DNA from: Methylorubrum extorquens
Lineage (GTDB): Bacteria > Pseudomonadota > Alphaproteobacteria > Rhizobiales > Beijerinckiaceae
NCBI GenBank assembly: GCA_900234795.1
Contig: LT962688.1
Location: forward strand, 4,740,001-4,772,000
Length of the DNA stretch: 32,000 nucleotides
Reading direction: 5' to 3'
Below are positions 6,659-29,389 of the stretch, in pieces. Every line of letters starts with the position of its first letter. Position 1 is the first letter of the stretch. The translations under genes were made by a program, and so were the position numbers. A model generated the notes under the pieces. It saw only the letters and a list, made by a program, of their open reading frames with translations, ran no database searches and was not told the DNA's origin.

Positions 6659-7714
6659 CTAGCGCGGCAGCACCTTTGCCTCCTGCAGGCGGCGAATGGC
6701 GGACACCAGCGCCTCGACGCTGTCGACACTCTCGCCGAACCCGGCGCGCCGGATCTTGCCCATGTCGGAGACGAGGTCGAAGTCGCTGTGAAACACGAAG
6801 TCTCCGAAGCCCCAGCCGACCGCACGCTCGTAGGGCATGTCGCTCAAGCCCTGTTCCGCCACCAGCTTCTCCCAGGCCGGCTTCTTGTCCGCCATGTGGG
6901 TGGCGAGGCGCATGGGAACCGGCGGCCCGAGCGGCAGATCGAGCGCGGTGGCGAGCTTCTCCCAGACCCGCCGCCACCGGAAAGGCTCGTGTACGTAGTT
7001 GAAGGCCTCGCCGCGCGCGGCGTCCGCTGTCGCAGCCCAAAGGCTTGCCCGGCCAAGGGCGCGGGCATCTGTTACCTGGGCGAACACGCCCTCGTAGACG
7101 TGCGTGGGACCAGGGAAACGGAACGCTGCCCCTTCCATACGGCACAGGGCGGCGTAGGCGCCGATCACCATGGCGATGTTCATGGCGTTACCGGCTGCGT
7201 CGCCGACCACCACGTCGGGGCGCAGGATCGACCACGCCGCACCGCCGCGCTCCGCCCGACGCCGCAACACGTCCTCCTGCGTGAAGTAGAAGTTCGGCCC
7301 GATGTGGCGCGGGTTCTCGTCTTCGTAGAACGGTGCAGGAACCGGCCCGAGGTGGACGCCATAGACCTTCGCGCCCTGATACAGGACCACGCGCTCCAGC
7401 GGCGCGCCGACGGCGTCCAGCCCGTCGAGGAGGTTGCGCAGCATCGCGCCGTTCACCCGATCCTCTTCGGCGAGGCTCGGATGCGGCGCGAGCGCGGCGT
7501 AGAACAGGTGCGTCGTATCTCGGGCCTGCGCGAGGGCGGCGCGGGTCGTGTGCGGATCGGTGAGATCCGCCGCGATGTCCTCGCTCGATCCGTGCGGTCG
7601 ACGCGAGAGGGCGCGCGCGTGCCAACCATCCGCTGCCGCGAGTTCCTGCATCAGCGCCTTGCCGATGATGCCATTCGCGCCCGCAACCAGGGCCCTTCGG
7701 ATCTCTGCCATCAT
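6659..7714 (-). CDS. NAD-dependent epimerase/dehydratase family SDR (5-beta-reductase-like)
   Basis: 351-aa ORF with the N-terminal dinucleotide motif ALVAGANGIIGKAL and a long extended-SDR-like body. The opposite-strand ORF 6788..8239 is Arg/Gly-rich and implausible. Confidence 0.8.
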   Translation of the reverse strand: MMAEIRRALVAGANGIIGKALMQELAAADGWHARALSRRPHGSSEDIAADLTDPHTTRAALAQARDTTHLFYAALAPHPSLAEEDRVNGAMLRNLLDGLDAVGAPLERVVLYQGAKVYGVHLGPVPAPFYEDENPRHIGPNFYFTQEDVLRRRAERGGAAWSILRPDVVVGDAAGNAMNIAMVIGAYAALCRMEGAAFRFPGPTHVYEGVFAQVTDARALGRASLWAATADAARGEAFNYVHEPFRWRRVWEKLATALDLPLGPPVPMRLATHMADKKPAWEKLVAEQGLSDMPYERAVGWGFGDFVFHSDFDLVSDMGKIRRAGFGESVDSVEALVSAIRRLQEAKVLPR

Positions 7715-25228: not shown

Positions 25229-25594
25229 ATGTCAGACGCGCATACGACGTCAGCTCCGAGCCACCCGTTCATCGAGAGCAGTCGTGTCGAAGGCACTGCT
25301 GTGTACGACGCAAACGGAAAACAAATTGGGATAATCAAGCGCCTTGTGATTGAGAAGGTAAATGGCAATGTCGCTTATGCAGTCACCTCGTTCAGAAAAT
25401 TTATTGGCGGAAGTTCAGACAGTCACACAATTCCGTGGAATTATCTGCACTACGATTTGGGCCTGCAAGGCTATCGCACAAACATCACGGAGGAGCAGCT
25501 GCATAACGCGCCTGAGTTCTCAAGGCGCGATGATCATCTAATTTCCGGACAGGAGTGGGAACTGCTTGCTGAATATTATGCAGGACCCTTGTAG
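25229..25594 (+). CDS. PRC-barrel domain protein
   Basis: A strong SD (AAGGAG) lies 7 nt upstream of the ATG. SSRVEGTAVYDANGKQIGIIKRLVIEKVNGNVAYAVTSF...HTIPWNYLHYD is the PRC-barrel pattern. Confidence 0.85.
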   Translation: MSDAHTTSAPSHPFIESSRVEGTAVYDANGKQIGIIKRLVIEKVNGNVAYAVTSFRKFIGGSSDSHTIPWNYLHYDLGLQGYRTNITEEQLHNAPEFSRRDDHLISGQEWELLAEYYAGPL

Positions 25595-25997: not shown

Positions 25998-26228
25998 AGC
26001 CACATCCCAATGTCTAGAGCTGGTGGAAATCGGAGCCTATGAGTTGAGTTCCGGTCGAGACTTTCGCGCCTTCCAAGAGCCTGACTGGCAGCGCCTACCG
26101 CGAGCCATCCGGAAATCTTGAATTATGAAGTTTCGCCTAGCTGCGCCGCGCCGCTGGCGCATCAGCTTTGTCGGTCAGGTGTGAGTGCTGCGTGCGCGTT
26201 GGGACGAGTTTTGACCGATGGCACGCGC

Positions 26229-26256
26229 AAAAAAGGCCGGGCAGTCGGCCCGGCCT
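26229..26256 (-). terminator. Rho-independent terminator of the Cys-rich peptide gene
   Basis: The minus strand reads AGGCCGGGC-CGACT-GCCCGGCCT followed by TTTTT. It starts 25 nt after the TGA. Confidence 0.75.
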
Positions 26257-26280
26257 GATTGCGGCACGACCTGGCGCAGC

Positions 26281-26487
26281 TCAGGTACGCTTACTCATGT
26301 TGCCGCCGCTCATACTCTCGCAGCAGCAACCACCCTTCTTGCCCTTCTGGGCGTGGTTCATTGCCATGCTGCCTTTCCCGCACATCATCGCGCCCTTGCC
26401 CTTGCTGCCACCGCAGCAACTCATGGCGAGAGCAGGGGCAGCGCTCAGCAGTAGCAAGGCTGTCGCGCTCGCAATCAGGTTCTTCAT
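26281..26487 (-). CDS. 68-aa secreted Cys/Met/Gly/Lys-rich peptide (putative periplasmic Cu(I)-binding peptide)
   Basis: GGAGGA SD lies 8 nt upstream of the ATG. The Sec signal is MKNLIASATALLLLSAAPALA. The mature 47 aa read MSCCGGSKGKGAMMCGKGSMAMNHAQKGKKGGCCCESMSGGNMSKRT (6 Cys, 7 Met, 11 Gly, 7 Lys, 1 His). The gene is bracketed by a MerR-type promoter and an intrinsic terminator. Confidence 0.75.
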   Translation of the reverse strand: MKNLIASATALLLLSAAPALAMSCCGGSKGKGAMMCGKGSMAMNHAQKGKKGGCCCESMSGGNMSKRT

Positions 26488-26517
26488 GGCTTGGTGTCCT
26501 CCGCAGGATGCTGCGTG

Positions 26518-26548
26518 ATTGTGATCCTTCCCATAGGGGGAAGGTCAA
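26518..26548 (-). promoter_or_regulatory. MerR-family (CueR/HmrR-type copper) operator-promoter: TTGACC-N19-CACAAT with dyad CCTTCCC-N5-GGGAAGG in the spacer
   Basis: The minus strand reads TTGACCTTCCCCCTATGGGAAGGATCACAAT. The -35 is at 26543-48 and the -10 at 26518-23, with a 19-bp spacer. The dyad closely resembles the E. coli PcopA CueR box ACCTTCC-N7-GGAAGGT. Confidence 0.6.
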
Positions 26549-26594
26549 GCGCTTGACTACCGCTTCACAAAACCGATGTCGGCCGCCACCGCCT

Positions 26595-26642
26595 TCAGGC
26601 TCTCGGGCTCTCGGGCTCTCGGGCTCTCAGGCTCTCAGGCTC
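26595..26642. repeat. Tandem octanucleotide repeat, 6 copies (TCAGGCTC x1, TCGGGCTC x3, TCAGGCTC x2)
   Basis: Read directly. The array forms the last 16 codons plus the stop of the ORF at 26595..26798. Confidence 0.9.
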
Positions 26643-26798
26643 CCGCTCTTTCCGCTCGCTGTAGCGATCCACTAGGTAGTCAGCTCGCTCGCGGGTCAGC
26701 AGCGTGAACTTTATGAGTGCCTCGCAGACCTCCACCACCCGGTCGTAGGGCGGCCTCGGCCTCTTGCGGCCGGCTTCGTCAAACTCCTTGTAGGCCAT
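26595..26798 (-). CDS. Hypothetical 67-aa protein ending in the octamer repeat
   Basis: ATG at 26798 gives [67 protein letters not shown]. There is no clear SD and I do not recognise a family. Confidence 0.3.
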
Positions 26799-26875
26799 CG
26801 TCACCGAAGACTGATTCGGGGTGGCAATCATCCGCATCCAGCGCCCGAGCACGCGCAGGCTGTTCACGGCGTTGA

Positions 26876-27178
26876 AGCTCTGCGAGCCGCCGGATGCCGA
26901 GCGTGCTGGTCGGGGTGCTCTCGATCCAGCAAGCCCCGGACCTGTCGCCGCTGACCCGCGAACTGATGGTCTACGCCAACCTGATCGGCTGCGATCTTGG
27001 GCCGAAATTCGCGCCCATCGGCAGCCTCGCCACCCTGCTCTGGCTGCACGTGCTGGCGAGCAAGGGCCAGCGCATCACCTGGGGCCAGTACATGAAGGTC
27101 GGCCTGATTATTACGCCGCCGGTGCTGCTGGTTGGATCCAGCTTTGGCGAAGGGCGGTCCGAAGCCGCTCCGCCCTAA
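26876..27178 (+). pseudogene. arsB: 3' remnant (about the last 95 codons) of an arsenite efflux pump ArsB gene
   Basis: [12 protein letters not shown]...[57 protein letters not shown] aligns with the E. coli ArsB C-terminus (NNMPTVLVGALSI...[31 protein letters not shown]). The roughly 330 upstream codons are missing, and an in-frame stop lies at 26873-75. Confidence 0.75.
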
Positions 27179-27635: not shown

Positions 27636-29389
27636 GGCTCTTCGTCGGGTTTGGTGGATCACGCTGCGAGGAGGAAGCGGCGACGCAGGAGGTCGAGCTT
27701 GGCGCGGCCATACATCGAACGCTTCAACAGCTTGAGGCGGTTGACCTGCCCCTCGTCCTGTCCGCTGCTCCAGGGCAGGCGAAGGCCTGCACGAACAGCG
27801 GCTCCATCCTGAGCGAGGCTGACGGCGAAGCTCTCGACCACCCGCACACCGCAGGCACGGGCGTCGGACAACCAAGCGTCGAAGGCGGTGGTGATGCCGG
27901 GCTTGGCCGGCGCGGCGCTGCAACGGCTGCGAACGATTCGACAGAACCGCCGACCGAGCCCGACGACCTTGGCAGCCTCGTCATCCTGCAGCACGCGCGC
28001 GACCAGTGCTGCGGCGTCGGCGTCGAGGTCATCCGGCTCGCGCAGGAGGTGCCACGACAACTGCTTCGGCGAGGGCAGCGGCGGCGACGGGGGCGCGACC
28101 TGCGCCATGGGCGACGGCGTCTGGAGGCGCCAGATCGTGGTCCTGGCGGGGCGCGTGCGCCGCTCGGACAGCCAGCGTCTGACCTGCTTGACGGTGCCGG
28201 GAAAGCCGCGATCCCGCAGCTCGCGCCAGAGCTGCATGGCGTTCTCGCACCCCGCAGCCTGGCGAGCGTGCAGGTGATCGAGATGAGGATCGAGGATGCT
28301 GCGCCCTGGCCCGCGCCCGTCATGGCGCGGGAAGCCCTCGGCGAAGGCGTACTTGCGCACCGTGGCGCGAGCCAAGCCGGTCTCGCGATTGATGAGCCGG
28401 AGCGACTGCCCGGCCGCACGGCGGCGACGGACATCGTCGTAGAGCTCCTCCCACCGACCGACCGCTGCAGCGCGGGCGAGCGTCTCGGCGGGTGCACGCG
28501 GATAGGCTCTGGTGCGCCGGGTCGAAGGCGCTGGCGCCGTGATCGGCGGCAAGAGCTTCAGGCGCGGGTGGACACGGGCGAGCCAACGCTCGATCATCTG
28601 GCGGGTGTTGAGCAGGAGATGCCACCGGTCAGCGACCTGCACGGCCGCCGGCGCGCCAAGCGTGGTGCCGCGGGCATACTCGGTCGAACGATCGCGCGCC
28701 ACGAGCCGGATCTGTGGCTGGCAGCGGAGCCATGCGGCCCAGGTCTCGGCCGAGCGGTCAGGGAGCAGATCGAGAGGGCGATGGCGTTCGAGGTCGACGA
28801 CGATCGTGCCGTAGGTCCGCCCTTTGCGCAGCGCCCAGTCATCGACGCCGACGACACAGGGTCGAGGCGCCTTCGGCAGCGGCACTCCCCGGATCGTCCG
28901 CAGCAGAGTCGTGGCGCTGGACGGCATGGCCAGGTGTGCGAGCAACCGGGCAGCTGGCTGTCCGCCGAGTGCGAGACCGGTCCGGGCCTGCGCCCCGGCC
29001 AGCCGGCGGGTGCGTTGGGCATGGCGGGCGAGTAGCTTCGGGAACCGTTCGGCGAAGGTTCGGCGGGGGCAGGCTGGGTCGCAGCAGTAGAAGCGCCGAA
29101 CCTCCAACTGCAGCCGAACGGCCTTGCCGCTGGCCGGCAAATCGGCAGGCCGTCGCCGATACCGGCTATGGACCGACGTGCTGATGGCTCGGCACGTCGG
29201 GCAGCGGGCGTGGTCGGGCTTCGCTTCGGCGACGAGGGTGAGGGCGGTGGGGCCGTCCCGCGCGACGCGGACGAGGCGGCAGCCAGGCAAAGGGATGAGC
29301 TGGGTCATGCCCCGATCTGCGAGGCTGAACCGACCACGCCAAGACCCCAACCGTCACGCACCTCGATCCACCAAACTCGGCGATGAACC
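27636..29389 (-). mobile_element. ISL3-family insertion sequence, 1754 bp, apparently intact
   Basis: Terminal IRs are GGCTCTTCGTCGGGTTTGGTGGATC (27636-60) and, in reverse complement, GGTTCATCGCCGAGTTTGGTGGATC (29365-89). It is flanked by the perfect 8-bp direct repeat AGCGGAGT and carries a single transposase ORF. Confidence 0.9.
27659..29308 (-). CDS. ISL3 family transposase
   Basis: MTQLIPLPGCRLV...ARCPTCRAISTSVHSRYRRRPADLP is the zf-ISL3 region. VGVDDWALRKGRTYGTIVVDLERHRPLDLLPDRSAETWAAWL...DRSTEYA is the DDE domain. The ATG at 29308 lies inside the tracked ORF 27659..29350. Confidence 0.9.
   Translation of the reverse strand: MTQLIPLPGCRLVRVARDGPTALTLVAEAKPDHARCPTCRAISTSVHSRYRRRPADLPASGKAVRLQLEVRRFYCCDPACPRRTFAERFPKLLARHAQRTRRLAGAQARTGLALGGQPAARLLAHLAMPSSATTLLRTIRGVPLPKAPRPCVVGVDDWALRKGRTYGTIVVDLERHRPLDLLPDRSAETWAAWLRCQPQIRLVARDRSTEYARGTTLGAPAAVQVADRWHLLLNTRQMIERWLARVHPRLKLLPPITAPAPSTRRTRAYPRAPAETLARAAAVGRWEELYDDVRRRRAAGQSLRLINRETGLARATVRKYAFAEGFPRHDGRGPGRSILDPHLDHLHARQAAGCENAMQLWRELRDRGFPGTVKQVRRWLSERRTRPARTTIWRLQTPSPMAQVAPPSPPLPSPKQLSWHLLREPDDLDADAAALVARVLQDDEAAKVVGLGRRFCRIVRSRCSAAPAKPGITTAFDAWLSDARACGVRVVESFAVSLAQDGAAVRAGLRLPWSSGQDEGQVNRLKLLKRSMYGRAKLDLLRRRFLLAA

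Follow-up and report, generated by a model that had tools for sequence, protein, structure and literature searches.

The subject of this analysis is a small gene module on the minus strand of a 32,000-nt stretch of Methylorubrum extorquens DNA (contig LT962688.1, positions 4,740,001 to 4,772,000), the whole of which is referred to here as the window. Within only about 330 bp the module comprises a promoter whose spacer holds a dyad of the CueR/HmrR type, a ribosome-binding site, a short open reading frame (ORF) for a Cys- and Met-rich product with a predicted signal peptide, and an intrinsic terminator (Table 1). An initial annotation, made from the letters of the DNA, had proposed that the locus encodes a copper-induced periplasmic peptide under a copper-type MerR-family operator.

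Read along the minus strand (26548-26518), the promoter is TTGACC-TTCCCCCTATGGGAAGGAT-CACAAT with a spacer of 19 nt, and its operator dyad, CCTTCC-N7-GGAAGG, can also be read as two perfect 7-bp arms, CCTTCCC-N5-GGGAAGG (26544-26526). Both elements are as the initial annotation had given them, and its GGAGGA Shine-Dalgarno motif, 68-aa ORF (26487-26281) and terminator of hairpin and T-run were likewise all found on this strand; only one spacing is to be corrected, since the Shine-Dalgarno motif, placed there about 25 nt downstream, follows the -10 element at a distance of about 15 nt. In the 32-kb window the composite TTGACCTTCC-N7-GGAAGG is found a single time, and it appeared in none of 100 dinucleotide-preserving shuffles with one mismatch permitted. 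The bare dyad with up to two mismatches is not rare by chance (mean 1.74 per shuffle), so that the significance of the window box lies in the combination of the -35 element with an exact dyad and not in the dyad as such. The published signal of CueR and of HmrR, its alphaproteobacterial orthologue, is ACCTTCCC-(5)-TGGAAGGT in promoters with 19-bp spacers, and the window site fits both the signal and the spacer rule (PMC1526738). As judged from its letters, the window promoter would be a textbook operator-promoter of the CueR/HmrR type, and CueR is predicted to bind there. Escherichia coli PcopA, TTGACCTTCCCCTTGCTGGAAGGTTTAACCT, is closely similar to it.

The 68-aa product is most likely exported by the Sec route and cut after ALA, a prediction already made in the initial annotation. 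Cleavage by signal peptidase I is consistent by inspection with an MK n-region, a NLIASATALLLLSAA h-region and a PALA↓M cleavage region. The mature 47-mer contains six Cys (CC, C, CCC), seven Met, a single His, 11 Gly and seven Lys, with a net charge of about +7; the Cys clusters and the Met and His counts match those first reported. AlphaFold2 returned a mean predicted local distance difference test (pLDDT) score of 49.8, with no structure except the helix of the signal peptide and a three-residue helical turn near residue 57, and such a low-confidence model agrees with a peptide that is disordered until metal binds. The terminator stem-loop (26256-26234), followed by TTTTT, folds with -32.6 kcal/mol (z = -2.95). 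A search of Rfam gave no match in the window at gathering score; a sub-threshold match to the small RNA SorX (26229-26287, minus strand, 26.7 bits against a gathering score of 46.6, E = 5e-4), covering the 3' end of the peptide gene and its terminator, probably reflects resemblance to the terminator only. Antisense frames across the gene are mostly open, and a gene on the plus strand (ORFs 26168-26518 and 26259-26675) was considered and rejected, having no supporting features. The assignment to the minus strand rests on the agreement of four signs, namely purifying selection specific to that frame, the Shine-Dalgarno motif, the signal peptide and the orientation of the terminator.

Conservation of the peptide and of its operator

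A search of 5.8 billion proteins returned 71 homologues of 53-107 aa, of which the named ones all come from Methylobacterium or Methylorubrum. Of 1.84 billion cluster representatives, searched exhaustively with a profile, only 24 matched at E <= 0.001, and a further search that started from the most divergent branch gave 34 homologues, the names being again Methylobacterium only. The peptide is no one-off: it belongs to a multi-copy family of about 100 proteins restricted to Methylobacterium and relatives, and many M. extorquens assemblies contain a protein identical to that of the window. The initial annotation had not recognised the family, and indeed the peptide has no match in Pfam or NCBIfam (E <= 10) and no sequence match in the PDB; a tblastn search of the PLSDB plasmids also gave none, for which low-complexity masking is possibly responsible. 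Public entries name its members 'hypothetical protein', 'putative exported protein' or, through an automatic UniProt rule applied to several, 'Lipoprotein', so that the family is annotated but uncharacterised. Its alignment has a near-invariant core, A↓MSCCGG-KGKGAMMCGK-MAMNH-KGKKGGCCCEGMSGNMSKR, and the Cys count is exactly six in 100 of 111 members. Before the predicted cleavage site 97 of the 111 carry AxA, and nine more V/S/TxA. The mature part across the family is composed of Gly (23%), Met (15%), Lys (15%) and Cys (13%), with almost no hydrophobic residues.

Purifying selection acts on the peptide. Among 27 distinct coding sequences taken from genome loci, the median pairwise ratio of nonsynonymous to synonymous substitution rates (dN/dS) is 0.31 overall, 0.27 in the mature part and 0.41 in the signal peptide, and the corresponding ratio of proportions (pN/pS) in the two shifted frames is 1.17 and 1.40. 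The low ratio in its own frame, set against the shifted ones, argues that the peptide is translated and under selection, and the difference between 0.27 and 0.41 that the mature part is more constrained than the signal peptide.

The operator is conserved as well. Among 28 non-redundant upstream regions aligned from their start codons, 18 contain TTGACC (or TTTACC/TTGATC) followed in constant register by CCTTCC-N7-GGAAGG with 0-3 mismatches. Information content over these 18 loci peaks at TTGACC, TTCCC, GGGAAGG and the A of the -10 element, and is low in the centre of the dyad and in its flanks; the second-position A of the hexamer 19 nt downstream is kept across the box-bearing promoters. Since the box lies anywhere between 38 and 66 nt ahead of the start codon, its conservation does not depend on the coding sequence, and the pattern is a classical phylogenetic footprint. 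The initial annotation had tied its proposal to homologues that retain the box together with an ORF showing a bias towards synonymous substitution, and both are found here.

Outside peptide promoters, the full box was found in about 590 kb of related loci (denoted by L-numbers) only before copZ and in a divergent region between cueR and mauE. The copZ-preceding boxes (L013/L014, L039/L040, L046) include those of copZ genes heading copZ-cusBA operons, and the divergent box of L046 lies between mauE-DUF4396 and a CueR-type regulator that scores 163.4 bits on the CueR equivalog TIGR02044 (cut-off 147.4) and has the Ser77-type and C-x7-C features. The type of box is informative because other MerR-family regulators in the same islands have distinct dyads of their own: CCTGTAG-N3-CTACAGG, which is CadR-like, next to a regulator that has Cys where CueR has Ser77, and a merO-like CTGTACC-ATGGTACGG at another MerR-type regulator of metal islands. 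The copper-type assignment made at the outset is thus upheld by the published signal, by the 18 homologous promoters and by the boxes linked to copZ and cueR. The MerR protein adjoining the P0036 and P0026 paralogues was considered as regulator of the peptide and rejected, as it has Cys at the Ser77 position and its own divergent CadR-like dyad; it scores best on the ZntR and CadR models, below their cut-offs. The ZntR/CadR-like regulator beside the czc/CDF island in L041 has its own CadR-like dyad, CCTGTAGCCACTACAGG (7420-7470). In M. extorquens AM1, CueR is encoded in the copA1 operon, and the analysis of the Cu-resistome of that strain that reports this makes no mention of the peptide (PMC9948745).

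Genomic setting of the window copy and its paralogues

The window copy is a true orphan. Searches of the 32 kb by tblastn with CueR, two other MerR types, CopZ, CopA, CusA, MauE, DUF4396, Csp and DUF305 gave no match, in agreement with the earlier remark that the window holds no cueR, copA or other cop gene, and the neighbours are a ribonucleotide reductase, a PRC-barrel gene, an ion channel and an ISL3 transposase. The neighbouring arsB relic of the initial annotation is a 94-aa fragment, and immediately upstream of the peptide gene lies a further relic that it had missed, the C-terminal third of arsH, in the opposite orientation to arsB. In Methylobacterium haplocladii (L003) a full-length arsH stands 38 nt before the peptide gene with no box between them, and acr3 and arsC lie upstream of arsH on the opposite strand; in L007 and L011 the peptide gene is likewise box-less and directly behind arsH sequence, of which the 3' end alone is recognised. 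In L006 and the M. extorquens strains the box has been inserted behind the arsH stop, ahead of the peptide gene. The window relic contains an 8-nt tandem repeat, GAGCCYGA on the coding strand (26598-26642), present in six copies in the window and in L032, eight in L031 and apparently two in L030 and L033, the arsH of L003 being repeat-free. Six copies shift the frame and leave the arsH relic truncated, and the array is a strain-variable simple repeat within a pseudogene. The ISL3 transposase is present in the window and L032, is absent from the site in L030 and L033, and has an IS3-type element in its place in L031. It seems that the ars cluster was eroded by insertion-sequence activity and the peptide gene retained. 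Elsewhere in the window, about 1.2 kb (~24050-25200) between the PRC-barrel gene (25229-25594, plus strand) and the ion-channel gene holds no convincing ORF; it is also unannotated in matching public assemblies (gap 11260-12450 in L030) and gave no Rfam match at gathering score.

Paralogues of the peptide are linked to copper genes. One follows cusBA-DUF305-Csp-DUF305-copA and a box, another copZ-cusBA-DUF305-mauE (a glutaredoxin fusion) and a box, and a third lies behind merR and a box in a czcCBA/CDF/DUF411 island; such a second copy also occurs in the czc island of another M. extorquens strain (CP019322.1, L043) that carries the window's peptide as well. Further arrangements are mauE-DUF4396-peptide operons and a locus in which copZ-cusBA-DUF305-peptide is followed by divergent cueR and mauE-DUF4396, and additional box-bearing copies are solitary among housekeeping genes. 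Operator, peptide and terminator, met with in such varied settings, therefore form a recurrent, portable cassette. The czc/CDF island of L041 also holds a second, box-less copy (131-325) at a distance of 7.7 kb.

A MauE-family protein with an N-terminal glutaredoxin-like region (CPYG/CPFG) and DUF4396 (HCGSGC) form a conserved unit, with or without the peptide gene. In L013 the operator of this unit is merO-like (TTGACCCTGTACCATGGTACGGACCTTATAT), and the regulator combines a MerR(Hg)-like N-terminal region with a CueR-like C-x7-C loop and has no Cys at the third MerR position. DUF4396 itself is widespread and linked to copper elsewhere without the peptide, as in the MCO-CusF-Csp-DUF4396-CopA order of a betaproteobacterium. 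Conserved proteins of 121 and 118 aa, with no match in Pfam or NCBIfam, were also seen inside cusBA-DUF305 operons and next to czcC.

Table 1. Positions of the module, of its neighbours in the window and of further features in related loci
Feature	Position	Strand	Remarks
-35 hexamer TTGACC	26543-26548	-	Direct sequence reading; invariant or nearly so in 18 homologous promoters
Operator dyad CCTTCC-N7-GGAAGG, CueR/HmrR type	26526-26544	-	Exact match; inside the 19-nt spacer
-10 hexamer CACAAT	26518-26523	-	19 nt after the -35; A at position 2 kept in homologous promoters
Shine-Dalgarno motif GGAGGA	26497-26502	-	9 nt before the ATG at 26487; GGAGG-like motifs in most homologues
Predicted signal-peptide codons, 21 residues (MKNLIASATALLLLSAAPALA)	26425-26487	-	AxA before the predicted cleavage site; dN/dS 0.41
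Predicted mature-peptide codons, 47 residues (MSCCGGSKGKGAMMCGKGSMAMNHAQKGKKGGCCCESMSGGNMSKRT), and stop	26281-26424	-	Six Cys; dN/dS 0.27
Intrinsic terminator	26229-26256	-	9-bp stem (8 GC pairs), 5-nt loop, T-run; sequence and folding
arsH relic, C-terminal third only (context, outside the module)	26595-26867	-	TIGR02690 positions 147-219 of 219
arsB fragment, 94 aa (context)	26894-27178	+	PF02040 recorded on the identical gene in L030-L033
ISL3-family transposase (context)	27659-29350	-	Adjoins the arsB fragment
MauE-DUF4396 unit	L013 3932-6198; L034 6464-8219; L046 7220-9330		Divergent from a MerR-type regulator
121-aa protein	L037 3532-3897; L039 6300-6665; L046 6148-6513		
118-aa protein	L041 7053-7409		

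Proposed copper buffering and the alternatives to it

The interpretation that we favour, and regard as fairly probable, is that of a CueR-activated, Sec-exported, disordered peptide that buffers periplasmic Cu(I) through thiolate and thioether ligands. The window gene would then be a monocistronic, self-contained member of the CueR/HmrR copper regulon, with a CueR dimer seated on the CCTTCC-N7-GGAAGG dyad of a spacer that, at 19 nt, is over-long. Upon binding Cu(I) (or Ag(I)/Au(I)) CueR would untwist the spacer, which is the established activation mechanism of the MerR family, and so allow RNA polymerase to use TTGACC and CACAAT, the transcript starting near 26511 and ending at the hairpin (26256-26229). 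Sec export and cleavage after ALA would release a 47-residue cationic, Gly/Lys-rich, disordered peptide into the periplasm, where its six Cys (CC...C...CCC) and about seven Met (in MMC, MAMNH, ESM and NMS) could bind thiophilic metal, primarily Cu(I), and probably sequester other soft ions besides. Its role would be that of a sponge or buffer made upon induction, and it might also pass metal on to the Cus, CopA or oxidase systems alongside which its paralogues are encoded. The individual steps, that is, CueR binding, metal induction, export, the cleavage site, metal binding and its stoichiometry, are all predictions drawn from sequence. As a matter of speculation, the six Cys together with the many Lys would be well matched to a compact anionic Cu(I)-thiolate cluster. 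A more elaborate version, offered tentatively and with more doubt than conviction, would have an unmodified peptide resembling a periplasmic metallothionein form a polynuclear Cu(I)-thiolate cluster (e.g., Cu4S6) whose charge is balanced by Lys, with the MauE-glutaredoxin fusion and DUF4396 keeping it reduced or accepting its metal, the whole constituting a CueR-controlled envelope copper-buffering system confined to Methylobacteriaceae.

Several considerations weigh against copper buffering as the role of the peptide. Free cysteines in the periplasm are prone to form disulfides unless they are metal-bound or kept reduced. The box is missing from ten of the 28 upstream regions, and of these box-less genes some are operonic behind arsH and some stand behind DUF4396 under a merO-like operator, so that copper may not be the only cue, or not the original one. 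Finally, the family went unmentioned in the literature searched, which covered periplasmic metallothioneins, small Cys-rich proteins of the CueR regulon, copper in Methylobacterium, and DUF4396.

Some alternatives leave the regulation as proposed and change the fate or partners of the product. Signal peptidase II might cut before the first Cys (LAMS↓C), which would then be lipidated, to give a membrane-tethered, 45-residue metal trap or transporter partner with five free Cys. The residues before that Cys (LAMS, MAMS, FAMS, MAAG or LAAG in roughly 100 of the 111 members), the -1 residue, a small S or G that fits a broad lipobox pattern, and the automatic naming by UniProt all speak for this. 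A-M-S-C fits the lipobox [LVI][ASTVI][GAS]-C only in its broad PROSITE-type form, however, with Ala at -3 instead of the usual Leu, Val or Ile, and at -1 a few members carry R, T, D or N, residues not tolerated in a lipobox, whereas the AxA two residues upstream is kept almost throughout the family. A lipoprotein is the less likely reading. Rather than a passive sponge, the peptide could be the periplasmic partner of the MauE-glutaredoxin fusion and DUF4396, either handing metal to a membrane protein, as MerP does to MerT, or being redox-cycled as a thiol substrate against copper-driven disulfide stress, in which case the orphan window copy would serve partners encoded elsewhere in the genome. 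In many loci the fusion gene is indeed directly upstream of the peptide gene, or separated from it by DUF4396 (L013/14, L017-20, L022-25, L029, L034-36, L039/40), mauE-DUF4396-peptide units stand under MerR-type operators, both proteins have Cys motifs (HCGSGC in DUF4396, C-A-C in MauE), and bufferin operons also include a DoxX-type protein (PMC11626156). This partnership is nevertheless held to be improbable: many copies, the window copy included, are solitary among housekeeping genes, DUF4396 is widespread without the peptide, and the DoxX gene is dispensable in bufferin operons (PMC11626156).

The remaining alternatives touch the ligand, the chemistry or the existence of the peptide. Its true ligand might be another thiophilic element, As(III), Sb(III), Hg(II) or Cd(II), with the copper-type box a secondary acquisition. 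To this would point the arsH sequence that directly precedes the window copy and the copies most closely related to it, the box-less gene of M. haplocladii in its acr3/arsC locus, the one operon with a merO-like operator and the copies in a czc/CDF island beside a CadR/ZntR-like regulator. Most copies nonetheless have the CueR-type box and not an ArsR, CadR or MerR operator, the commonest neighbours are the Cu(I) systems CopA, CopZ, CusBA and Csp, and Met thioethers in abundance are a usual mark of Cu(I)/Ag(I) sites; a different ligand is held to be improbable. Even less credence is given to a bufferin-like precursor of a metallophore, a ribosomally synthesised and post-translationally modified peptide (RiPP) whose cysteines become heterocycles before export. 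Bufferin precursors do carry a Sec signal peptide, and a class of them with six conserved Cys serves copper defence (PMC11626156), but the window peptide matches neither bufferins nor any other family in Pfam or NCBIfam, no gene for MNIO (DUF692), DUF2063 or another RiPP enzyme occurs in any annotated neighbourhood, and bufferins, unlike the window peptide, are predicted to fold. The absence of a modifying enzyme near any copy led us to reject this reading. Lastly, GC-rich genomes give many long spurious ORFs, and the open antisense frames noted above are a reminder of this, so that a chance ORF beside a chance promoter-like sequence in an intergenic relic had to be considered; with purifying selection confined to the peptide frame, a Cys pattern invariant across about 100 proteins, a conserved box, Shine-Dalgarno motif and terminator, and a composite box never seen in shuffles, coincidence is scarcely believable.

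Comparison with known metal-binding systems

Among the known buffers of periplasmic copper are folded Met/His proteins (CusF, CopC, PcoE/SilE), bufferins, which enzymes modify, and the exported bundles of Csp1. A disordered Cys/Met-rich peptide that is short, left unmodified and under direct CueR control would, if true, be a different and very economical solution, and one would have to ask how its free thiols persist where conditions are oxidising. It would overturn nothing, and would point to a perhaps new means by which thiols and copper are held in the envelope. Plant-associated methylotrophs, which are notably copper-tolerant, carry the family in several copies, and part of their tolerance could be due to it; the compact module with its clear operator could become a test bed for alphaproteobacterial CueR regulation and a candidate part for metal biosensing or biosorption.

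The regulatory half of the module is of a known type, while the peptide resembles known buffers in its predicted working and belongs to none of them. TTGACC, the 19-bp spacer and the centred dyad ACCTTCCC-N5-GGGAAGG are shared with CueR/HmrR promoters such as E. coli PcopA and PcueO and rhizobial PactP; unlike those, the window promoter, whose induction is predicted, drives a tiny stand-alone peptide gene and not one for an ATPase, chaperone or oxidase. The small putative metal-binding product under a MerR-family operator recalls MerP and CopZ, of which MerP is periplasmic and feeds a membrane protein, but it has neither the heavy-metal-associated (HMA) fold nor the MxCxxC motif of these proteins. 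Closer in character are the sponges PcoE and SilE, which are likewise small, exported, disordered and rich in Met motifs, and whose metal-inducible buffering of Cu(I)/Ag(I) is what is predicted for the window peptide. They show no sequence similarity to it, use Met and His without Cys, are about three times longer and answer to two-component control instead of CueR; the window peptide, for its part, has no Pfam match to them and only a single His, in one MAMNH motif, as against repeated MxxH/HxxM.

With the bufferins (BufA1, DUF2282; BufA2, BUF_6/12Cys) the peptide shares a Sec signal, conserved Cys (six in BufA2), a DoxX/MauE-like protein in some operons and, by prediction, the role of chelating copper in the periplasm. 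Bufferins require MNIO and DUF2063 enzymes, which turn Cys into thiooxazoles (PMC11626156), whereas the family matches neither DUF2282 nor BUF_6/12Cys and has no MNIO or DUF2063 gene near any copy. Its high Cys content is that of metallothioneins (SmtA/BmtA, MymT) and of Csp1/Csp3, and soft-metal thiolate clusters like theirs are predicted for it; copper inducibility is known for MymT and Csp, and Csp1 is exported. Metallothioneins, in contrast, are cytosolic, lack a signal peptide and show no sequence similarity to the window peptide, which has an N-terminal signal peptide and no Pfam match to them. The Csp proteins are folded four-helix bundles with 13-18 Cys, again without sequence similarity; the window peptide has no Pfam match to Csp (PF03860) and no helices predicted in its mature part, although a true Csp gene adjoins one of the paralogues. 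What it adds to the Cys of metallothioneins and Csp is about 15% Met and 15% Lys.

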